DNA of 20,749 bases, from the IMG/VR virus record IMGVR_UViG_2671180890_000003; one strand, 5' to 3'. The first letter of the stretch is position 1. The number at the start of each line of letters is the position of its first letter. This DNA comes from a virus. Its lineage: Duplodnaviria > Heunggongvirae > Uroviricota > Caudoviricetes. Under the pieces are notes generated by a model. That model was not told where the DNA came from and searched no databases. It saw nothing but the letters and a program-made list of their open reading frames with translations. Of the stretch, positions 1,123-19,489 are shown piece by piece. The translations under genes were made by a program, and so were the position numbers.

Positions 1123-1566
1123 ATGGTCTTTGCAATGAGCAAATCTAATCTGGTCGCGTTCCGCATCCCATCTGAATTGCAGGATGAGTTTAATCGGTCT
1201 GTTCTCGCTTCTGGAGGGGATAAAACCTCCTGGCTTGTTGATGCGATTCGCATGAAGCTGGGACAGCCGGAAAAGTCTATTGATTCACGAATGCTTGGGC
1301 TGGTGGAGCGCATGGAAAAAGCCGCTGCGTCGCTTATTGCCGGAAAGCCGAACATCCCACCAAAGCCATATAACGAAACGGCAGTTATAAAGATCATTGC
1401 CGATACCATCCGACAGGGATTTGATAATGGGCGTGTGATAGCGGAACGGCTCAATGAAGCAGGCTATCAAACAAAAGCTGGTAAAGCATGGGATAAAGAC
1501 ATTTACAGCGCGTGGAAGCGTCAGGGAAGCAATGCTGAAAAGTTATCAGTGGCTCTAAGAATGTAG
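1123..1566 (+). CDS. Putative DNA-binding protein (147 aa) with ribbon-helix-helix-like N-terminus
   Basis: Only credible plus-strand gene. N-terminal LVAFRIPSELQDEF...WLVDAIRMKL fits a strand-helix-helix pattern; C-terminal LNEAGYQTKAGKAWDKDIY resembles a recombinase-type DNA-binding motif (from memory). No clear SD; start may be ATG 1135. An inverted repeat ATACAGT-5-ACTGTAT sits about 25 bp upstream. Confidence 0.5.
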   Translation: MVFAMSKSNLVAFRIPSELQDEFNRSVLASGGDKTSWLVDAIRMKLGQPEKSIDSRMLGLVERMEKAAASLIAGKPNIPPKPYNETAVIKIIADTIRQGFDNGRVIAERLNEAGYQTKAGKAWDKDIYSAWKRQGSNAEKLSVALRM

Positions 1567-1582
1567 CCCTATATTTTGATTT

Positions 1583-1960
1583 TTAGACGTGCTTGGAGAA
1601 CAGGTAGCGTGCCATCACTAAAACAATGCCAAAGACTTCAGCGAGGGTTCCCCCCATAAATAGGTTTATAACGAAATCACTAAAATGGAGCAGTTTTGCT
1701 CCAATAAGGACAAAAATCCCATTCATAACTAATAGCTGGCCTATCAGAATGCCGATAAACCACCGAGCAAACATTTTTTTCAGTTTTGTGTCTGTTTTTA
1801 AATCTTTTGTTTTTGCACGCTGATGGGCTTTGGCTGGATCCTCATCATTTAGATGTGTGAGGGTTTTTGCTGATGGTGATGAGCCAGAGGCTGGTTCACC
1901 TCTGGCTTGTCTTGCCGCTTGCTTTAGTTTTTCAGATATAGCGTAAGATCTAGACGTCAT
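1583..1960 (-). CDS. Small membrane protein (125 aa): hydrophilic charged N-terminal ~60 aa then two predicted transmembrane helices
   Basis: Track ORF. Start lies 3 nt after the stop of the upstream peptidase gene (translational coupling). Hydrophobic stretches WFIGILIGQLLVMNGIFVLIGAKLL and FVINLFMGGTLAEVFGIVLVMARYL. Confidence 0.55.
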   Translation of the reverse strand: MTSRSYAISEKLKQAARQARGEPASGSSPSAKTLTHLNDEDPAKAHQRAKTKDLKTDTKLKKMFARWFIGILIGQLLVMNGIFVLIGAKLLHFSDFVINLFMGGTLAEVFGIVLVMARYLFSKHV

Positions 1961-1963
1961 TAC

Positions 1964-2446
1964 TCATCGAAGCCCTAAATTCTTTAGGCGATAACGTATA
2001 GCATCATCGGATACACCAAAATAGGAAGCCATCATTACTGGTGCATATCCTGCATTGTTGAGGCGTCGAACCTCTTTTTCTGGCATGAGAAGACATGCTG
2101 CAAAGTTATTGGCGAATATTTCTTCGCTGTCTACACCTTGGCTTGCCAGTTTTCCGCGGTAATCAACAAACTCATATTCAAGTGGCTGACCGTTCTCAGT
2201 TCGTTTGACGTAATGCCCTAACTCATGCGCACACGTAAATCGTTTGCGCACGTTACTATCATTACGATTGAGTATGATTACTGGATCTTGTTCTGGCTCT
2301 TTCAGCAATGCGCCTGAAACATCATCATCAAGCGTGGTTTCAACAACATCCAACCCTAACTCATTGGCAATCCATACTGGATCAACCGGGAATTTCCTAT
2401 CGCCCCAGATATCTTTCAAGAGGGCATGTGCAGATGTATTCGACAT
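1964..2446 (-). CDS. ImmA/IrrE-family (DUF955-like) Zn-metallopeptidase, no fused HTH domain (160 aa from ATG 2446)
   Basis: HEXXH motif in RKRFTCAHELGHYV. ATG at 2446 is preceded by AAGGAGG at the right spacing; the track ORF begins 2 codons earlier at a GTG (2452). Confidence 0.7.
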   Translation of the reverse strand: MSNTSAHALLKDIWGDRKFPVDPVWIANELGLDVVETTLDDDVSGALLKEPEQDPVIILNRNDSNVRKRFTCAHELGHYVKRTENGQPLEYEFVDYRGKLASQGVDSEEIFANNFAACLLMPEKEVRRLNNAGYAPVMMASYFGVSDDAIRYRLKNLGLR

Positions 2447-2627
2447 GTTCACCTCCTTTGATTATGGTTAAATAGTCGAAATTTTCACCACTTCCCTTGT
2501 GGATATATTTACATATAAAAGGTAACTAGTCACTAACCAACACAAATCTTTTTGAAGACAGATGGGGGGTGTTGAACGGTTTTTAAATGATTTCTTTGAT
2601 TTTTAACAGCAATAAGGAGCATTTTTA

Positions 2628-2681
2628 ATGAAATTAGACGTTGATAATAACTTTTTGAGCAATCTTTACATATCATGGTAG
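2628..2681 (+). CDS. 17-codon micro-ORF (MKLDVDNNFLSNLYISW) with a consensus Shine-Dalgarno
   Basis: AAGGAG 8 nt upstream of ATG 2628; stop TAG 2679-2681. Too short to judge as coding; possible leader peptide or chance. Confidence 0.2.
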   Translation: MKLDVDNNFLSNLYISW

Positions 2682-2905
2682 CCTTCTATGCTGTTTTTCC
2701 AACTAAAAGATTGGCACATTTATCCGCTGGTAGTGGCGTTTTTTCGCCGCCAGCGCCTCTCTGGTTCCATTCCTTACATCTGTTCAAATTCAGCAACCCT
2801 TGCCGCGATCTTGCCGTTATCGAGAAGCTCTTTCGCTTTTCGGTTAATACTATCGGTCTTCATATTGCCAGCAGCATACGCCATCCGATAATTTCGATGC
2901 TACGC

Positions 2906-3280
2906 GCGCGTACTTGTCGCAAAATATCAGGCAAAGGCCAGATTCAGAAAGTCGTGATAACCACCAGCACAACATGAGAGGTCATGTAACGCGATTTATC
3001 ACACCAGATACATGTGATTGGTGTACCCGCATAAAACATCGTCATAGCGCGTCCTGTGCGCATATACGCCGATAATCAACACATCACCACCACTCTGTCT
3101 TATGTAGAGAACAGTTTTATGGTGCTCCCCGCCATCGTGTGCGTACTGGTCGGACGCAGTTGCAAAAAATTTTGCAACTGATACCCCTCGCGCGCGTACT
3201 GGTCACGAAATTGGTGTTTTGCTGTGGCAGTGATATCAGAAAAATCTTCCTGTTTCACATAAAGCGGATATGCGCGTACT
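2906..3280. repeat. Dispersed short repeats GCGCGTACT(GGTC) at 2906, 3141, 3192 and 3272 (variant at 3047) plus inverted repeat AGTTGCAAAA-aa-TTTTGCAACT at 3158-3179
   Basis: Read directly from the sequence. Region 2460-3418 has no convincing ORF on either strand. Spacing is irregular and units are short, so this is not CRISPR-like. Confidence 0.5.
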
Positions 3281-3384
3281 GTAACGGCCCCATCAACTGG
3301 GAGCGGATTTGAGCCCCGAATGTGTAGGCAATGTCACTTAACGTTTGTCGCATACCTTCCAGAAAAAGCGATTCATGAATAATA

Positions 3385-3420
3385 GGGGCATGAATGCCCG
3401 GCGTACCGGGCTTATTAGTT
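3385..3420. terminator. Two overlapping GC-rich hairpins (GGGCAT/ATGCCC and GCCCGG/CCGGGC) with T-rich flanks; candidate intrinsic terminator just downstream of the lipoprotein gene
   Basis: Hairpins at 3386-3399 and 3396-3411. T-rich TTATTAGTT follows on the plus strand and CTATTATT on the minus strand; the T-tract is imperfect. Confidence 0.35.
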
Positions 3421-4117
3421 AATTTGGTGCTTTAGGGTCAACATTAAAAGTTATATCACCTTCTGTATTTTTCCCGGCATAGCTAGCGGCTATTCTCGCC
3501 AACCCTTTGTAATCAGCAATTCCATCAGACTGTTGCGAGACGACTGAGCTACCAACTTTCCATAACATATTAATCTGCCGATTATTGAGATAAGCCTTGG
3601 CATCAAACGACTGGAGTATCACCCCTGCGCCGTAGAACGTGTCCGTCACAGTTGTGTTATACGCGCCAGTAATTCCATAAGTAGGCGTATAAACTGTTGT
3701 TGCCGTTCCAGTGGTATTAGCTGTACCGTAGCCACCACCATAACTATTGAACGTGGTGTTCGAGTTTCCGTACGTTGTTGCTGAGCTCACACCAGTTTGC
3801 CCGTATATTGGGATGGTTACATTACGAGTATTTGAAATGGCCCCGCTTCTCAAAAAGTTCAAGAGAATTACCTGGTCAGCCAATTTTTCATCTTTAACTT
3901 GTGTATATCCTTGGCTTGATAAACTGGCGGCTACTACCGTAGCTATTTGAGTGTATTCAATCTGTTTGGTGTTCCAAAGTTCTTGGCTTGCGGGGATGAT
4001 CAAGAACTTCTTACCGACAGATTGCCCGGAAGATAAAGCATTGACCGTTACTAACGGTTTTTGTACGCATCCAGCCAATAATGACAGGGATAATATTAAA
4101 AGAAGATTTTTAATCAT
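3419..4117 (-). CDS. Lipoprotein (232 aa) with Gly/Thr/Tyr/Asn-rich central low-complexity region
   Basis: Signal peptide with lipobox LLAGC (MIKNLLLILSLSLLAGC). AGGTGAG SD upstream of ATG 4117. Possible own sigma70-like promoter (TTACAT...TAATTT) in the 150-bp gap upstream. Lower GC than the upstream module. Confidence 0.7.
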   Translation of the reverse strand: MIKNLLLILSLSLLAGCVQKPLVTVNALSSGQSVGKKFLIIPASQELWNTKQIEYTQIATVVAASLSSQGYTQVKDEKLADQVILLNFLRSGAISNTRNVTIPIYGQTGVSSATTYGNSNTTFNSYGGGYGTANTTGTATTVYTPTYGITGAYNTTVTDTFYGAGVILQSFDAKAYLNNRQINMLWKVGSSVVSQQSDGIADYKGLARIAASYAGKNTEGDITFNVDPKAPN

Positions 4118-4267: not shown

Positions 4268-6988
4268 CTATTCCCATTCGCTAACATCTTTCATGCCACT
4301 GAGGGTAGCTACAATCCCGGCCCTTGTCAGTTTCACGAATTCTTCAGCCCCAACGGCATCACGAATTGCTTTCATGGCAATTTTATTGGCCGAAAATCGT
4401 TTCTCTGCTGCGGCGATCGCTGCTGGTGATGCCCCTGCGCGCACTGCTTTTGTAGCTTCCTGAACGGCTTTCTCTATCGCATATCGACCACTTCTTGTCG
4501 CCCCAATCTTAGCCACAGCATTTCTTAGCGCGCCACCAGCAACCAAACCACTAATCGAACCAATTACACCACCGCCAAAGCCTCCAGCGATCGCACCTGA
4601 CTGTTGAACACCGTTCATAATCACGCCGACGATCTTTGGAAGGCCTGAATCGAGCGTTTTGAGAGCCTCAGTTGTTCTTCCCGTGCGCTCTACGTATCGC
4701 TGCGGTCTGGTACTGGCTTTAGCGAGTACACCGAACTCTTTCATCATTCTACCGAGATCTGGCGCATGACGACTGATGGCGTTTACATTCTGCTGGGTCA
4801 TGAGCTTGGCAAAATACTGGATACCTGACTCTTCACCGATTCCTCCCTTCTCTCCCTGCGCCACAGCATGCTGAAGAATAGATGCTATTGCAGGTTGGCG
4901 TTCTGCTTCCGGCAGCGCGGAGATAAGACGGTGAAAAGCTCCCGTTCCAGTGTTTGCGGATGCCTTAAGCGTATCGGCACCTTTTCTTACCATAGCGTCT
5001 GATGCGAGATCTCGACCAAAAACAGATTCGGCATTTTGTTTGGCGATAATGTAACTTTTAGAGAGATCGTTAGCTTTCTGCCATTCTGTGAGGAAGTTTC
5101 CTTTTTCAGCCATGATGCGCATGTCATCAGTGATAGCTCTGCGCATTTCTCCGGCAATCCGGGCGGCATTGGCCTTACCTGCCCGGGTGTTTGCTTGTTC
5201 AGCATCAGCAAACTTAGCACGCCATGCCTTCATCCCGTCGAAGGTTATGCCGCCACCTTGGTTGTTGGCAGCCTGAAACTGTTTCATCTCCGGGCTGAGT
5301 GGAACATTGGCTGCTTTTTCTGCTTGGACGACAGCCATTCCATTACTCATTTTCATCCTTTCGCGTGGCATCGTGCTTCGCAGTTCTGCCCATGCCATAT
5401 TCTCTGCTGTTTTCATATCACTGAGGCTCGCGATGATGCGCTCTTTAATTGCTGCGCTTTTTTCTGATGCGCTTCCAGACTCAGCACCGAAATCAGACAA
5501 CTGCTTATTCAACTTTGAGGATATTTCATTGAAGGCCGTAAGGTGAGCATCCTGAACATTCCCAGGAGTTGATGCCAGAACACCTTCTGCTTGGGCAATT
5601 CCACGACTACCTGAGCGCATTCCAGGCGTCAGGGTGTTGATATTAATACCAGTGATTTTCGCCGCCTTAGCGACATCATCTCTGACGTTTGATGCCTGCG
5701 ATGCGATATGCTCTCGGCCTACGGCAGAACGCGCTGCTTTCGATACATCATTGGCGGTTTCCAGAGTATTTGCTGCCCCTAACACATGGCCTGATTGATT
5801 TGTATTACTCCGCAATACATCTCGCATTACGTCACTGGCTGTCTGTCCGCTCTTTATTAAAGCGCGTGCTCCTAGCGATCCTGCTAGGCCAATACCTGTC
5901 TCTTTTGCTAGGTCTTCTGGGCTGATCTGCCCGTTCTTTTGGGCGTTCACCAATGTACCTGGCAGGTTTTCTGCCAACATACTAGCCACCTTTGTGGCCG
6001 CACGTTCAGCACGTGGAGCGTTGGCAACTGAAGAAGCTGCGGTAGCTGCCTTTCCTGCACCTAATCCTGTAATAAGGTAAGGTGCTAGCTGCTCACCAGC
6101 CTGCGCGTATGGATCTGTAGGTTGGTCTACTGGGCGAAAGACTGGTGATATGGGCGTGTATGTGCCATCACCCACACCAAGCTTCTGAGCTGCCCATGCT
6201 CCGGCTGATTGCGCCGCATTGACTACCCCCACGCCTGCGTCCATTACATCAAACGGTATATTAGCAATCCCTCTGGCCATCTGCTCTGGCGCAGCTTTCA
6301 GTCCTGGCGAAAGATATTCCATCTCAGGATTAAGGTTAGACTTGGCTACTTGCTGCTGCGGTTCCCCGGCATTTTCATCGGCGAGAAACTGAGCTCTTTT
6401 CTGCTCCCATGAACTGGCTGTTGGTAGTCCTGCTTCTATGTTCTTAAATTGCTGACGTTTTGCTTCCCATGCAGAAATATCTCCCACCTGAGAGATTTCT
6501 TTATCAAGCTCTGAGTAGTCAGGCTGCTGAAGATTGCGATGTTGACTGGTTTGTGCAAACTGCAAGATTTCACTGTCATCAGGGATTATTCCGGCATCTG
6601 CAAATTTACTTACGTAATTAGCCGTTTCATCTGGCAGTGTAGATTTACCGTTTCTGACGGCATTAATACGAGCATAGCCAGAATTATACCCAGCCAATGC
6701 CATACCTATATCACCAAATCGCTTCATTCCTTTATTGAGATGGTTTGCTGCGATATCCATTTGCTTTTCAAATGGCAGTGAGCGCGGATCTGTTCCACGA
6801 TAACCAGCATCACTCATTACTGAGGGCATCAGTTGAGCAAATCCTCTAGCTCCTTTCGGTGACTCGGCACTTCCGTTACCACTAGATTCATTGCCAACTA
6901 ATGTTTCCATCGTCCCTGATGGGAAACCATATTTTTCATCGAGATGACGGGAATAGGCTTTCTGTTTTTCTGTCAGTTGTGCCATCAT
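4268..6988 (-). CDS. Large virion-type protein with N-terminal SLT lytic transglycosylase domain (about 906 aa); internal-virion/ejection protein-like (T7 gp16-type architecture) or tape-measure-like
   Basis: SLT signature ES...GARGFAQLMP...AGYNSGYARI in the first ~150 aa. The remainder is Ala/Gln/Ser-rich and helical, with a Gly-rich hydrophobic C-terminus. ATG 6988 forms an ATGA overlap with the upstream stop; the track start is 6994. Confidence 0.8.
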   Translation of the reverse strand: MMAQLTEKQKAYSRHLDEKYGFPSGTMETLVGNESSGNGSAESPKGARGFAQLMPSVMSDAGYRGTDPRSLPFEKQMDIAANHLNKGMKRFGDIGMALAGYNSGYARINAVRNGKSTLPDETANYVSKFADAGIIPDDSEILQFAQTSQHRNLQQPDYSELDKEISQVGDISAWEAKRQQFKNIEAGLPTASSWEQKRAQFLADENAGEPQQQVAKSNLNPEMEYLSPGLKAAPEQMARGIANIPFDVMDAGVGVVNAAQSAGAWAAQKLGVGDGTYTPISPVFRPVDQPTDPYAQAGEQLAPYLITGLGAGKAATAASSVANAPRAERAATKVASMLAENLPGTLVNAQKNGQISPEDLAKETGIGLAGSLGARALIKSGQTASDVMRDVLRSNTNQSGHVLGAANTLETANDVSKAARSAVGREHIASQASNVRDDVAKAAKITGININTLTPGMRSGSRGIAQAEGVLASTPGNVQDAHLTAFNEISSKLNKQLSDFGAESGSASEKSAAIKERIIASLSDMKTAENMAWAELRSTMPRERMKMSNGMAVVQAEKAANVPLSPEMKQFQAANNQGGGITFDGMKAWRAKFADAEQANTRAGKANAARIAGEMRRAITDDMRIMAEKGNFLTEWQKANDLSKSYIIAKQNAESVFGRDLASDAMVRKGADTLKASANTGTGAFHRLISALPEAERQPAIASILQHAVAQGEKGGIGEESGIQYFAKLMTQQNVNAISRHAPDLGRMMKEFGVLAKASTRPQRYVERTGRTTEALKTLDSGLPKIVGVIMNGVQQSGAIAGGFGGGVIGSISGLVAGGALRNAVAKIGATRSGRYAIEKAVQEATKAVRAGASPAAIAAAEKRFSANKIAMKAIRDAVGAEEFVKLTRAGIVATLSGMKDVSEWE

Positions 6989-8304
6989 TGCCATCCCTTA
7001 AGTTTTGCCTGATAGTAACTTTCCGGCAGATAGCCATGTGCGGTCACATAATCCTTAACCAGTGAAGGATCCTGCAACAGCATTTTGGTATCAGTTTCTT
7101 CGTCCTTAGATTTGGTTACAGGAATACCGAGCCCGGCAATCTGTCGTTTCTGCATTCGAATAATTACGTCCTGCGCTTTATTCAACTCTCGCAAAAATGC
7201 CTCATTGCTGGTTGCTGACTTAATGCCATTTTGAGATTGCATAAGGGCAGCCCTTTCCCCTTCGGTTGGGTTAGAGCCAAAAGTCCCTTTGAGGCTAGGC
7301 AGAATAACCTTTAGGTTGTATTCATCAGCTTTGGCGCGTAGGCTTCGTGTGTCTTCTGCTACATCAGGAAGGAATCCAAACCCCAGCGTCAGGGGGTTAT
7401 AGTTCTGCGAGCGGGTAACGGCCGAAGGATGTTTCCCTACAATTCCCGCCAGTTCATGACCCACTTCAAGCGCAGAGTTCAAGGAGTCGATGTTACCTGC
7501 AACAGTATTAATTTTATCGTTCATCTTCTCCACTTTCGCCTGCTGTATCTTGCTCAGTTCAGCATTGAGCTTGTCTCTCTCGATGTCATTTTGAGCACGT
7601 CCAAGTCGTGCTTTCAGAACCATTTCTCTCGTGCGTAGTTGGTTATCGGATAGGACTTTGAACTGCTCCATATCGAGACGTCGATTACCCTGTTCCGCAT
7701 TAACCTGAGCATTATATGCGGATGTATCTGCGTTCTGCTGTGCAATGCTCTGCCCTTGCTGCTTCTCTTGAACACTAAAGTAACTATTTGGATCAGCATG
7801 GAGGTGGATGAGGTCAGTGATTCTGTTGAATTCCTGTGGGTCATTCTGCCAAGACTGATAAACCTCTTCAGCAGGAAGACCAAATCGCTGTAATACTGGA
7901 TTTGCCTGCTGAATGGCCTTCTGCATGGTCAGTGGATCTCCAGTTTGTGACGCAAGACGCAGATTCATGGCAGCGTCAGCGGTCTGTCGATTTTGCTCAG
8001 CATCAATGAATCCCATCTGTTTTTGAGAATCAGCCATAAACTGGGGATACTGGGCCATTAACTTCTGCACGCCAACACGATCATTATTAGCTACCGCACT
8101 ACCCAACCGTGCCTGATATTCTTTTAACTGCTGGGAAATTTGCGCCTGCTGATTAATCTCAGCAACGCCTCTTAGCCCCTGTAGCGCCATTAAACCTACG
8201 TTTGGCTGCTGCTGATACTGCACAGGCTGAGGAACGGAAGAACGAGGAGCATTATCATTTTGCGGTGCCATGCTAGGCAGCCCGCCAAGTTGCCATGTCG
8301 CCAT
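6985..8304 (-). CDS. Gln-rich coiled-coil protein (439 aa); putative virion internal protein (gp15-like position)
   Basis: Track ORF. Start overlaps the upstream stop by 1 nt (TAATG) and the stop overlaps the downstream start: a translationally coupled block. Confidence 0.7.
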   Translation of the reverse strand: MATWQLGGLPSMAPQNDNAPRSSVPQPVQYQQQPNVGLMALQGLRGVAEINQQAQISQQLKEYQARLGSAVANNDRVGVQKLMAQYPQFMADSQKQMGFIDAEQNRQTADAAMNLRLASQTGDPLTMQKAIQQANPVLQRFGLPAEEVYQSWQNDPQEFNRITDLIHLHADPNSYFSVQEKQQGQSIAQQNADTSAYNAQVNAEQGNRRLDMEQFKVLSDNQLRTREMVLKARLGRAQNDIERDKLNAELSKIQQAKVEKMNDKINTVAGNIDSLNSALEVGHELAGIVGKHPSAVTRSQNYNPLTLGFGFLPDVAEDTRSLRAKADEYNLKVILPSLKGTFGSNPTEGERAALMQSQNGIKSATSNEAFLRELNKAQDVIIRMQKRQIAGLGIPVTKSKDEETDTKMLLQDPSLVKDYVTAHGYLPESYYQAKLKGWQ

Positions 8305-8981
8305 TAGAATCCAAGCCCCCCAACAAGACCAATAAGCCCACCACCAATAGCCCCGGCGACATTACCTATACCCGGAACAACGGAACCAAGTTGCGCACCC
8401 GCTAAAGCGCCTGATGCCGCCCCACCAATACCACGCGCAAGACTGGATGGCTGCTGCGCCTGACCTGCACGAATAGCGCCAAGCCCCTGCAAGAGTTGCC
8501 CGGTATTATTGGCGTAGTTTTGCCCTGCTGTTGCCTGCCCTGATGCCGCATTCATCCCGACATTTAGCAGGTTTCCATAATTTTGCATTTGCCCACTGAG
8601 CCAATTGTTATAAAGCATGGGCGCAATGGAAGATAACTGGTTACTGGTAGCTGTTGAGCCAAGCCCCCCGGTAGCTTCTGCTGAGACAAGGTTCTGATAA
8701 CGGGCCTGATCTGCCTGTGTTTTATATAAACCAGAACCAAAGAAATCATTCGCGGCTTTATTCTGCCCTTCCAGAGTCATCAGCCCTTGCAGTTGTTGTA
8801 AAGCAGGCAATCCGACTTCTGCATACGGCTTGAGATTATTCATCACCGTATTCCACTGCTCGCGCTGCAAATCAATTGCCTGCTGCTGGGCCTTCGCCTG
8901 AGCTTTAGAGGCACCACCATCACCGCCTTTTTCGTATACGGCACGATTGAGATGTTTATGAGCTATATGGGTAATTAACAT
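8304..8981 (-). CDS. Gly/Gln-rich protein (225 aa) with hydrophobic Gly-rich C-terminus GGLIGLVGGLGF; putative membrane-inserting virion protein (gp14-like position)
   Basis: Track ORF, coupled to its neighbours; composition suggests membrane association. Confidence 0.65.
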   Translation of the reverse strand: MLITHIAHKHLNRAVYEKGGDGGASKAQAKAQQQAIDLQREQWNTVMNNLKPYAEVGLPALQQLQGLMTLEGQNKAANDFFGSGLYKTQADQARYQNLVSAEATGGLGSTATSNQLSSIAPMLYNNWLSGQMQNYGNLLNVGMNAASGQATAGQNYANNTGQLLQGLGAIRAGQAQQPSSLARGIGGAASGALAGAQLGSVVPGIGNVAGAIGGGLIGLVGGLGF

Positions 8982-9436
8982 TCGCTGAATTCCTTATATT
9001 GTTGCCGAGTTAACTGATAAAGCGTTACGCCGACGGGTTTACCACATCTGATATAAGCATCATCAAGGTGACCAACACGGGTAGCGCCAAGCAAACGGAT
9101 AATTGCCCGTCCGTATTTCGTGGTGTCAGGAACCATAGTGATGCTATTAAGGAATGGTGAGTTTTCGAGAAGCCATTTGCAGAATAATCGATGCCCTTGC
9201 AGTGCATATTCGCCACGGAATCCGGGGTCGTACACCGCATGGCATTCAACAACGCTATGCCAGAAGTTACGCACTTCATGAACGCCAGCCAGCACCAATC
9301 CTTCGTAGATGCCGAGATATACCGCATCAGGCTTGATGTAGTACGTGTGCCCCGGCTCAACAATATTTTCGGTATTGGCAGGCTCGTTAAGAAAGGCCTG
9401 TAATCGCACCGGGTTATCAATAAATTTTAGTTCCAT
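8975..9436 (-). CDS. Hypothetical protein (153 aa), first gene of the ejection-like block (gp13-like position)
   Basis: Track ORF with ATG start; overlaps the downstream gene by 7 nt. No family recognised. Confidence 0.6.
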   Translation of the reverse strand: MELKFIDNPVRLQAFLNEPANTENIVEPGHTYYIKPDAVYLGIYEGLVLAGVHEVRNFWHSVVECHAVYDPGFRGEYALQGHRLFCKWLLENSPFLNSITMVPDTTKYGRAIIRLLGATRVGHLDDAYIRCGKPVGVTLYQLTRQQYKEFSEC

Positions 9437-15494: not shown

Positions 15495-15685
15495 TTTTCA
15501 CCCCCAAGAATTACCAGCTCGGCACGGGCATCGTTAACCAAAGATGAGCACGCTTTAATCGCATCCACGACATCAGCAGCGTCCATTTCTTCAGCCGAAA
15601 GACTGACAGCAACCAGGACAGCCGCTGCTTGCTCGATTAATTGAAGTGCGGACGTAAGGCGAGGGGTATTAATTGAGTTATTCAT
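15491..15685 (-). CDS. Hypothetical small protein (64 aa from ATG 15685)
   Basis: Internal ATG with GGGGG SD and 8-nt overlap with the upstream stop; the track ORF extends to 15742. Confidence 0.4.
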   Translation of the reverse strand: MNNSINTPRLTSALQLIEQAAAVLVAVSLSAEEMDAADVVDAIKACSSLVNDARAELVILGGEK

Positions 15686-15896
15686 TGGTTGCCCCCGTTT
15701 TGCATGGCATTTCGCCACCTTCCAGCAGGAAATGAACGTCACGAACGGCGAGATCCAATATCGCGAGTAACGCCTTCAGTCTTTCGTCTCGTGAGGGAGA
15801 GTTGCTCACCAGAATGTCGTTAATCACTTCTGTCAGTGTGATGATCTGGCTTGTGCGTTCGAGGGGGTCCATATGCACATCGTAGGTTTTAATCAT
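15678..15896 (-). CDS. Hypothetical small protein (72 aa, MIKTYDVHMDPLERT...)
   Basis: ATG 15896 preceded by GGAGGTGG SD. It is the C-terminal part of the 355-aa track ORF, which I interpret as a run-on frame. Confidence 0.5.
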   Translation of the reverse strand: MIKTYDVHMDPLERTSQIITLTEVINDILVSNSPSRDERLKALLAILDLAVRDVHFLLEGGEMPCKTGATNE

Positions 15897-16083
15897 GTGC
15901 CACCTCCATGCGGATACGACCAGCAAAAAAGCAGACGTGATCGCGCACCAGAGAACGGCGAGCATCGCGTTCAGACTCGGCAGCAATATGATGAATTTTG
16001 GCGGTAATTGTCGGGCAATCGCGGCGAACTGCGGCGATAATCCAGATAAATTGCGGTTTTTGGGTAGGGGTAGTAGCCAGCAT
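15889..16083 (-). CDS. Hypothetical small protein (64 aa), first gene after the candidate promoter
   Basis: ATG 16083 preceded by AAGGAGG SD. The region is GC-rich with open frames on several strands, so coding status is uncertain. Confidence 0.35.
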   Translation of the reverse strand: MLATTPTQKPQFIWIIAAVRRDCPTITAKIHHIAAESERDARRSLVRDHVCFFAGRIRMEVAHD

Positions 16084-16231
16084 GTGGCAGCCTCCTTGTA
16101 CTGGGAATTCTTCCCACCACCGGAGCTGCGAAACTCGCTGGTGGTGGACTGAACAGAGTTCGCAGTACCGGCGTACAAGGAAACCGGCCAGCCTTTCGGC
16201 TGCCCTGTCCAGCCCACCATAATTTTGCAAG

Positions 16232-16270
16232 CGACGCGGATTATAACCACATCACTGAAAAAAGTGTGAG
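16232..16270 (-). promoter_or_regulatory. Candidate sigma70-type promoter for the small-gene/primase operon (perfect TATAAT -10, weak -35, T-rich upstream)
   Basis: Minus strand reads CTCACACTTTTTTCAGTGATGTGGTTATAAT immediately downstream of the 16286-16307 terminator. No strong -35. Confidence 0.25.
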
Positions 16271-16285
16271 TCTGGCTAACGGCAC

Positions 16286-16307
16286 AAAAAAAGACGCTCG
16301 GCGCGTC
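16286..16307 (-). terminator. Intrinsic terminator for minus-strand transcripts: GACGC-tcggc-GCGTC hairpin followed by T7
   Basis: Plus strand A7 at 16286-16292 then hairpin 16293-16307; the stem is only 5 bp. Separates the regulatory operon from the primase operon. Confidence 0.5.
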
Positions 16308-16310
16308 ATG

Positions 16311-16745
16311 TGTCGCCTCGTACATTTCCGGGCTGCGAAACCCGGCACCCGTTTTATGAGGTGCCTTATAACCATAAACCGTGTTGCCGCATAACGGCAA
16401 GCTCTTTTTTATGGACTCCGAAAACTCACTATTGGAAGAACCAGAAGCACAGTACATCGCGCTCATTTCGTTAACGTCACGCGCGTGGACGAATGTTTTT
16501 GTGGAGTCACTACACGAGCGGAAGACATCATCTACGACCAGAAATTTTCTGGCGCAGCCGCTGACCTTCTCAATGCTAATATCATCGCCCGAGATTTCTG
16601 GTATGGTTAAGGCATCCGTTCCGACCACCAGCAAATGATAAACTTTGCTTGTATCTGCTGTATTAATGCCTGACTTTGCCGTCATATTTCTGGATTTTGG
16701 CGACATGCCAGCCAGTGAAAATGTCTTCTTCTGGACGGGTATCAT
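16311..16745 (-). CDS. ORF of unknown function with a strong start but unresolved 3' end (possible frameshifted or fused gene)
   Basis: ATG 16745 has a GGAGG SD and an ATGA overlap with the upstream gene. The frame has no stop until 15678 and runs through a terminator hairpin and a promoter-like region; the end coordinate is nominal. Confidence 0.3.
16384..16417. repeat. Copy B of hairpin + T6 + ATGGACT element (TTGCCG-cataa-CGGCAA, T-run 16405-16410, ATGGACT 16411-16417)
   Basis: Shares the 14-mer TTTTTTATGGACTC with copy A. On the plus strand it resembles an intrinsic terminator; it lies inside the minus-strand ORF that starts at 16745. Confidence 0.5.
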
Positions 16746-19396: not shown

Positions 19397-19489
19397 AGCG
19401 TAACCTTTCGCGCTGCCTTAAAGAGTGACCGGAACAGGCGGTAAGGCTTTCCGCTTTTCGCCCCGTCGGGCTAGTTCCGGTCTGTTCGG

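Follow-up and report, generated by a model that had tools for sequence, protein, structure and literature searches.

What does an ImmA/IrrE-type zinc peptidase do when no repressor gene stands beside it? The question is raised by a two-gene locus in IMG/VR record IMGVR_UViG_2671180890_000003, a stretch of 20,749 nucleotides assigned to the Caudoviricetes (hereafter the window, taken at its full length). On the minus strand of this window, a gene for a small standalone peptidase is followed directly by a gene for a small membrane protein. A first-pass annotation, made from the letters alone, had read the two as a candidate defence or abortive-infection module in which the protease gates a membrane effector. 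We find that the pair is, by the homology of both its proteins, an unannotated member of the RmrA_D25/RmrT_D5 lineage of RosmerTA, a lineage in which the membrane protein is the toxin and the peptidase is its antitoxin.

Both proteins are related to the RosmerTA pair of Gordonia phage Kita

When phage genomes are searched by tblastn with the window peptidase, the matches are gene 32 of the Gordonia phage Kita and its relatives. Kita gp32 and gp33 form a characterised RosmerTA pair, RmrA_D25 (YP_009301393.1, annotated as 'Peptidase_M78') and RmrT_D5 (YP_009301394.1, annotated as 'Transmembrane') (Ernits et al. PNAS 2023, PMC10440598). The window peptidase is 43% identical to RmrA_D25 over 160 aa in a pairwise alignment (E = 3e-44), and the membrane protein is 25% identical to RmrT_D5 over 96 aa (BLASTP, E = 2e-5). 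The second relationship is also found with profiles, and in both directions. Specifically, a hidden Markov model (HMM) of the membrane-protein family detects Kita gp33 at E = 1.1e-9, while the HMM of the Kita family detects the window membrane protein at E = 1.5e-9 (31.8 bits) and matches about 178 of the 192 members of the membrane-protein family at E <= 1, with no matches to reversed sequences used as a control. In hhalign comparisons, the membrane-family profile aligns to Kita gp33 with a probability of 87%, and to the Kita-family profile with a probability of 95.9% (E = 6.1e-9, 77 columns). The window protein and Kita RmrT also have in common a T-x-x-E-V-x-G motif in helix 2 (T-V-V-E-V-L-G in Kita), and this shared polar motif, along with the reversed-sequence control, argues against a compositional artefact.

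The assignment to the lineage rests on the homology of both proteins, and on gene order and library signature as well. In Kita, the genes stand in the same order—i.e. peptidase and then toxin, with a 4-nt overlap—and the reference libraries respond to the Kita pair as they do to the window pair: Pfam returns M78 only, PADLOC returns capP and the C-terminal halves of RmrA, and the toxin returns nothing. The DNA of the pair has no match in the phage genomes, and neither does the membrane protein when it is searched against them by tblastn; the Kita toxin is too distant to be found in this way, and it was reached through the peptidase and the literature. A literature survey for defence systems that combine M78 with a membrane protein under other names returned only RosmerTA, PD-Lambda-2, and CapP.

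The pair is thus not a new kind of system, and the interest lies in the size of a family that had gone unrecognised. An exhaustive profile search of the membrane protein returns 1443 clusters at 50% identity with E <= 1e-3, of which 325 have E <= 1e-10 (a word-indexed search returns 60 homologues), so that the sole validated example, from an actinophage, belongs to a far larger family that extends across many phyla and is found in P4-like islands, at prophage moron sites, and at plain chromosomal sites. The kinship with Kita also provides a likely function for a pair that RefSeq labels as 'ImmA/IrrE family metallo-endopeptidase + hypothetical protein'.

A standalone peptidase with an intact catalytic site

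The rmrA-like gene, the candidate antitoxin (1964..2446, minus strand), encodes a 160-aa standalone peptidase of the Peptidase_M78 (ImmA/IrrE) family. The list of open reading frames (ORFs) begins it at a GTG (1964-2452), but the GTG at 2452 is an alternative, and the true start is likely the ATG at 2446-2444, which lies 5 nt past a perfect AGGAGG (2457-2452). It is this ATG that gives the length of 160 aa reported in the first-pass annotation. The Pfam model PF06114 matches residues 28-155 over model positions 2-123 of 123 (E = 9.2e-20; 71.1 bits against a gathering threshold of 22), and the same search finds no helix-turn-helix (HTH) domain in the protein. The zinc-binding and catalytic motif, described at first pass as a HEXXH core, is intact and reads HELGH (residues 74-78; 2213..2227, minus strand).

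Among 34 peptidase homologues with 50-86% identity, H74, E75, G77, H78, E109, and an ANxFAAxLLMP block are invariant. E109, whose codon lies at 2120..2122 (minus strand) and starts the E-x-FAN-x-FAA-x-LLMP block, is a candidate third zinc ligand by its likeness to IrrE. The AlphaFold2 model of the peptidase has a pLDDT of 88.5, and its best fold matches in the PDB are CapP (7t5t), PprI/IrrE (8sln and 3dte), and a regulator from M. tuberculosis with the same domain. In PADLOC, the capP match spans only positions 10-150 of a 242-position model, and the RmrA models match at E = 9e-14 and weaker, through their C-terminal peptidase halves only. The profile and structure searches suggested at first pass have placed the peptidase among CapP and PprI folds and linked both proteins to Kita, but they provide no library name for the membrane protein.

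The membrane protein is predicted to form a conserved hairpin behind a variable tail

The rmrT-like gene, the candidate toxin (1583..1960, minus strand), encodes a 125-aa predicted inner-membrane protein of the Kita RmrT_D5 family. The first-pass annotation had placed a two-helix membrane protein 3 nt downstream of the peptidase, and this is what we see: the genes lie on the same strand with the peptidase first, and the junction reads TGA-gta-ATG, with the 3-nt spacer at 1961..1963 (minus strand). Such a spacer implies one transcript and translational coupling. AlphaFold2 models the protein as a short helix at residues 4-19, a disordered stretch at 21-41, and two helices (42-87 and 95-122) packed as a hairpin; pLDDT is 63 overall and falls below 50 at residues 21-56.

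The predicted cytoplasmic N-tail (residues 1-65; 1766..1960, minus strand) is composed of the helix at 4-19, a variable disordered linker, an 'LDP' motif that is weakly conserved in the family profile, and a juxtamembrane helix with the pattern D..LKK.[FY]A.WF. Across the family, the part of the tail ahead of the juxtamembrane motif varies from 6 to 101 residues (median 50), and the long forms (170-236 aa) contain no extra domain. By contrast with the tail, the C-terminal hairpin is strongly conserved. In the family alignment, transmembrane (TM) helix 1 (approximately residues 66-88; 1697..1765, minus strand), which falls within the modelled helix 42-87 (pLDDT 78-87), contains an invariant Q75 and a nearly invariant N80, and TM helix 2 (approximately residues 96-119; 1604..1675, minus strand) carries the invariant pattern G104-T105-x-x-E108-x-F110-G111. 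Lys/Arg-rich flanks point, under the positive-inside rule, to an N-in/C-in topology with the tail in the cytoplasm. Pfam, NCBIfam, and PADLOC return no match for the membrane protein, and its single library match is phrog_5346, a family of unknown function.

The two genes form an obligate pair across bacteria

The first-pass annotation had named genomic co-occurrence as a check on the module, and the two genes are found together in every examined locus, whichever partner the search starts from. From the membrane gene, an M78 peptidase lies directly upstream in 44 of 44 loci (~32 non-redundant), and from the peptidase, a member of the membrane family lies downstream in 4 of 4 loci (three look-ups). 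Within a core set of 36 loci (~27 non-redundant), composed of 30 from a scan of one genome per species and six exact look-ups, with ORFs called by us, the gene directly upstream is always a same-strand M78 ORF of the same subfamily (E = 1e-29 to 1e-80). The core loci belong to Beta- and Gammaproteobacteria, Nitrospirota, a Bacillota metagenome-assembled genome, Desulfobacteraceae, and Balneola, and all examined loci together span at least 6 phyla-level groups. In the 36 loci, the two genes overlap by up to 4 nt or stand up to ~15 nt apart, with one exception whose start is probably miscalled (locus L030). Pectobacterium and Serratia loci are paired in the same way, as are two very distant family members, one on a Firmicute-like contig and one on a prophage-like contig beside YdaS/YdaT. 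The conservation of both across phyla indicates that these are real genes, and we conclude that they form an obligate, self-contained pair that is not due to chance.

This pairing bears on one further explanation, namely that the peptidase is a classical ImmA-type anti-repressor that cleaves the repressor of the island, or that of a helper phage, and so induces it, with the membrane protein as an accessory or sensor. The island does carry a P4-like regulatory region (C4 antisense RNA, Icd-like and Ash genes, and an AntA/B antirepressor), and the ImmA of ICEBs1 is likewise a small standalone M78 peptidase. Yet peptidases of this subfamily are invariably partnered by the membrane protein, and no HTH or repressor gene stands beside the pair in any examined locus. 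In the window, Pfam finds no HTH domain among the neighbours, and the first-pass annotation had likewise recognised no HTH repressor partner there. Clustering of the flanking ORFs reveals no third conserved gene, the sole shared context being synteny within Pseudoalteromonas. In addition, the pair also occurs outside mobile elements, and E. coli islands that carry an Abi gene or an empty slot in place of the pair keep the same backbone. An anti-repressor role is, on these grounds, exceedingly improbable.

The genomic settings of the pair are diverse. Related primase islands in Pectobacterium (again at yicC), Serratia, and Plesiomonas carry homologous pairs as cargo; in a Salmonella prophage, the pair is an oppositely oriented moron in the tail region; and at many loci it is a lone insertion among housekeeping genes, for example thiamine, histidine, or ABC-transporter genes. 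Distributed in this way, the pair resembles a small autonomous cassette of the toxin-antitoxin (TA) type.

Individual loci provide additional observations. In Methylobacter sp. G7, the pair lies between PAPS_reduct (cysD-like) and GTP_EFTU (cysN-like) genes (4512-5348 of L005/L006), an insertion that apparently splits the sulfate-adenylyltransferase gene pair. On a metagenome contig (L040, 1081-4711), three genes stand between a divergent prophage switch region of the YdaS/YdaT type and, on the opposite strand, a long-tailed member (236 aa) with its peptidase; we liken this position to the site of exclusion genes such as rexAB in lambdoid phages. A 195-aa protein from an ENA metagenome contig of 3124 bp (P0021), in which peptidase residues 1-138 are joined to toxin residues 69-125, was considered as a natural fusion and rejected: a deletion has removed the C-terminus of the peptidase together with all of the toxin tail, and the protein may represent either an allele that has been inactivated or an artefact of assembly.

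In E. coli, the pair occupies a swappable cargo slot

The window is identical to a sequence of E. coli G749, where it forms an integrative island of ~20 kb between yicC and yicG/ligB. Of 5426 complete E. coli genomes, 69 carry the pair, always as a single chromosomal copy with at least 99% identity, and the flanks of the island are common to ~570 E. coli genomes. In the genomes that carry these flanks, the slot holds the pair (the 69 genomes), a cassette annotated as 'Abi family protein', a small HTH gene, or almost nothing (annotated examples L048-L050). Blastn break-points against two other E. coli islands (L048 and L050) delimit the cassette to 1558..2832 (unstranded), which includes both genes and ~385 bp of upstream DNA, and this interval is a swappable cargo slot.

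The pair as a probable toxin-antitoxin module, and what weighs against it

Expression of RmrT_D5 alone results in growth arrest, abolishes transcription, translation, and replication, and leaves E. coli depolarised and permeabilised, and the Kita pair defends E. coli from the BASEL phages Bas54 and Bas59 (PMC10440598). By homology with Kita, we regard the window pair as probably a TA or abortive-infection module of the RosmerTA type, from the HTH-less RmrA_D25/RmrT_D5 lineage. The two-gene defence module put forward at first pass is to this extent upheld, by the co-occurrence of the genes, by a slot in which the pair alternates with an Abi gene, and by the homology to Kita, although its place within RosmerTA means that it is not new.

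The same cannot be said of the protease-gated effector. Expressed without its partner, the Kita toxin is strongly toxic, and it becomes less so when the peptidase is co-expressed (PMC10440598), which makes the peptidase an antitoxin rather than an activator. Antitoxin genes of RosmerTA cannot be deleted and are essential in transposon sequencing of Pectobacteriaceae, the opposite of what an activator predicts, and the peptidase-first arrangement of the window is the usual antitoxin-first order. Under gated activation, the membrane protein would be an inert pro-form, and a latent M78 peptidase, switched on by a phage or DNA-damage cue, would cut the N-tail and free the pore in a gasdermin-like manner. 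What lends this some appeal is that the M78 regulators characterised so far (ImmA, IrrE/PprI, CapP) are all signal-activated proteases; that the best fold matches, CapP and PprI, are both stimulated by single-stranded DNA; that the catalytic residues are invariant; and that the long, variable, disordered cytoplasmic tail is a possible substrate linker. Given the behaviour of the Kita pair, we find gated activation distinctly unlikely.

A toxin-antitoxin mechanism would run as follows. The 125-aa protein would enter the inner membrane as a helical hairpin of N-in/C-in topology and, by homology with Kita RmrT_D5, would oligomerise to form a depolarising and permeabilising pore, which would stop transcription, translation, and replication. 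The M78 peptidase, made first from the shared transcript and translationally coupled to the toxin, would hold it in check as its antitoxin. A phage cue, or a lost supply of antitoxin, would then free the toxin, which would kill the infected cell before phages can be released. The E. coli pair would travel as swap-in cargo on the P4-like integrative island at yicC.

How the peptidase restrains the toxin is a more speculative matter. The invariant catalytic residues imply that proteolysis matters, and the sole conserved candidate substrate would be the cytoplasmic tail of the toxin; we infer that the peptidase may act on this disordered tail and may need its invariant catalytic site to do so. 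It is conceivable, as a tentative proposal, that neutralisation proceeds by cutting of the N-tail, with the fragments perhaps cleared by ClpXP, and that the trigger is a phage product that blocks the peptidase. We know of no TA type for which a protease that acts as antitoxin by cutting the toxin itself has been demonstrated. In E. coli E101, it is a different RosmerTA toxin that renders ClpP essential (Rousset et al.). The window pair provides an E. coli-native member in which to ask how a repressor-less M78 protease silences a pore-forming toxin.

Several points weigh against the assignment to a RosmerTA-type defence module. The toxin homology is remote, with 25% identity, 25-32 bits in single-sequence comparisons, and profiles built on a hydrophobic hairpin, and PADLOC v2 does not call the pair. 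In Kita itself, RmrA neutralises RmrT_D5 only partly, and the complex of the two could not be modelled (pDockQ 0.05) (PMC10440598). The toxicity, depolarisation, neutralisation, and phage defence that we would expect of the E. coli member are all transferred from this actinophage homologue. Outside the enterics, the defence-island signal is weak. Specifically, for 125 flanking ORFs, the first of a total of 251 and taken from 20 non-enteric loci plus Plesiomonas, PADLOC returns few matches (14 families, each with 1-2 members and mostly from a MADS cluster and generic domains), and Pfam matches are mostly to metabolic and housekeeping genes. In Pseudoalteromonas, the pair is found at one fixed chromosomal site in seven genomes of several species (L015, L017, L019, L025-L028), with FlgO-like lipoprotein genes on one side and genes read as flgN/flgM/flgA on the other, which suggests long vertical retention in the genus.

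Flanks that are mostly housekeeping fit a selfish TA module no less than they fit a defence gene. The pair could be a purely selfish addiction module, which stabilises its carrier (island, prophage, or chromosome segment) through post-segregational killing and has no meaningful anti-phage role here. The many lone insertions, including that in Methylobacter, the few defence-gene neighbours, the single fixed site in Pseudoalteromonas, and the near-identical single copies in 69 E. coli genomes would all be in line with this. Nevertheless, the Kita homologue protects against phages (PMC10440598), an Abi gene takes the place of the pair in other E. coli islands, and homologous or related pairs are found at prophage moron sites and after gene A in P2-like phages; for these reasons, we consider a purely selfish role rather unlikely, all the more as addiction and defence are compatible and not exclusive.

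Likeness to known systems and related variants

The Kita pair and the window pair are alike in having two co-oriented genes that abut or overlap, a peptidase gene followed by that of a ~120-aa membrane protein; in both, the antitoxin consists of M78 only, without HTH, and in the toxin a soluble N-tail precedes the C-terminal membrane hairpin. They differ in their hosts, as Kita is an actinophage and the present host is E. coli, a gammaproteobacterium, and in their toxins, which are ~25% identical. The carriers also differ: here, it is the cargo slot of a P4-like island, whereas in Kita it is the junction between tail and integrase genes of a temperate phage.

Canonical RosmerTA (Millman et al. 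2022), PD-Lambda-2, and the clpP-dependent TA system of E101 (Rousset et al.) share with the window pair a COG2856/M78 zinc-peptidase antitoxin and a toxin of variable and unknown family, and they too are TA-like anti-phage modules. Canonical RmrA proteins are ~360-400 aa long with an N-terminal Xre HTH, whereas the window peptidase has 160 aa and no HTH; since Kita RmrA is also M78-only, the Xre HTH is not required in the HTH-less D25 lineage. In canonical RosmerTA, the toxin often comes first and derives from unrelated families, while in the window the toxin is second. PD-Lambda-2 has three genes, and the window system has two.

ImmA/ImmR of ICEBs1, IrrE(PprI)/DdrO, and CapP/CapH have the same peptidase fold and catalytic motif. 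Their partner, unlike the membrane hairpin of the window, is an HTH transcription repressor, and their output is gene expression. A cognate HTH repressor gene of the ImmA/ImmR type was found neither beside the pair with Pfam nor as a conserved third gene across the loci. ImmA of ICEBs1 is likewise a small, standalone protein. IrrE and CapP are 240-290 aa long and have extra C-terminal domains that the 160-aa window peptidase lacks. As for CapP/CapH, the peptidase is not of CapP length, and no CapH-like gene and no cyclic-oligonucleotide-based anti-phage signalling system (CBASS) or other defence operon lies beside the pair. The toxin, for its part, resembles PanT_D11 (Panacea), GhoT, and RexB-type proteins in being a short hydrophobic hairpin effector, for which loss of membrane potential and growth arrest would be the expected outcome. 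Sequence kinship between these and the window toxin is undetected with Pfam, NCBIfam, and PADLOC, and their antitoxins are different—i.e. a Panacea domain, an RNase, and RexA, respectively.

Related phage loci carry peptidases of this kind with other partners. In mycobacteriophage Che9c (L054, 1147-2812), an M78 peptidase 48% identical to that of the window overlaps the gene of a 129-aa protein whose sole TM helix is C-terminal, directly beside HicAB; this membrane protein is not in the RmrT_D5 family. In the P2-like NC_070905 (L053, 1998-3174) and in Salmonella phage MET_P1_103_31 (L055, 1992-3143), M78 peptidases 35-37% identical to that of the window lie just after the replication gene A, and their partners are unrelated membrane proteins of 159-199 aa. 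We take this position after gene A to be the tin/old cargo region. By their gene arrangement, these P2-like pairs may be further RosmerTA-like variants. Same-clade peptidases with unrelated small membrane partners match the partner-swapping that has been described as a feature of RosmerTA.

Surroundings of the pair and the carrier island

The ~385 bp of upstream DNA that move with the pair presumably hold its promoter; a promoter scan scores no better than shuffled sequence. A block within this DNA, TAGTGAC...TGTAAAGAT (~2500-2540), is common to the window, Pectobacterium, and Serratia. The ~960 bp upstream of the pair (2453-3418) contain no convincing ORF, Rfam returns no match within 1400-3500, and the interval 2833-3312 is kept in islands with other cargo. 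A terminator-like hairpin is present on each strand at 3386-3411, directly after a lipoprotein-like gene (3419-4117).

Downstream of the pair, a convergent gene on the plus strand (1123-1566) encodes a 147-aa protein with no significant Pfam domain. Its N-terminus looks ribbon-helix-helix-like by eye, and it matches phrog_30270 at 2.6e-4. A relative of this gene, with 71% identity, adjoins the Serratia pair (L047). We considered it as a hidden ribbon-helix-helix partner and rejected it, because it recurs only in Serratia and stays in E. coli islands without the pair. The PerC regulator gene, at the far end of the island, is likewise kept in islands without the pair. The 147-aa gene is island backbone and not a partner.

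The island also carries genes for an integrase, an AlpA-like HTH protein, an AntA/B antirepressor, an Icd-like protein, and a primase/helicase, along with an Ash pseudogene. On its minus strand, Rfam detects a C4 antisense RNA (16137-16224, 81 bits), isrK (16287-16364, 69 bits), and an int-alpA RNA (19415-19481, 66 bits). This is an RNA immunity region of the P1/P4 type, next to the Icd-like and Ash genes, and a listed 355-aa ORF (15678-16745) that overlaps these RNA features is probably not a gene. The satellite-like island of the first-pass annotation agrees with this P4-like backbone, and its satellite status is inferred from gene content; capsid, tail, and terminase genes are all absent from the island. 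The lower-GC arm described at first pass is likewise seen in the data, with a GC content of 42-46% over approximately the first 4.5 kb and ~44-53% (mostly 47-53%) in the remainder of the window.

A P22-like ejection set lies at 4268-9436 on the minus strand and is composed of phrog_651/DUF2824, phrog_598 ('DNA ejection'), phrog_917/2534, and phrog_770, the last a DNA-transfer protein of 908 aa with an N-terminal lytic transglycosylase. With this set, the island looks like a satellite that carries its own ejection proteins.

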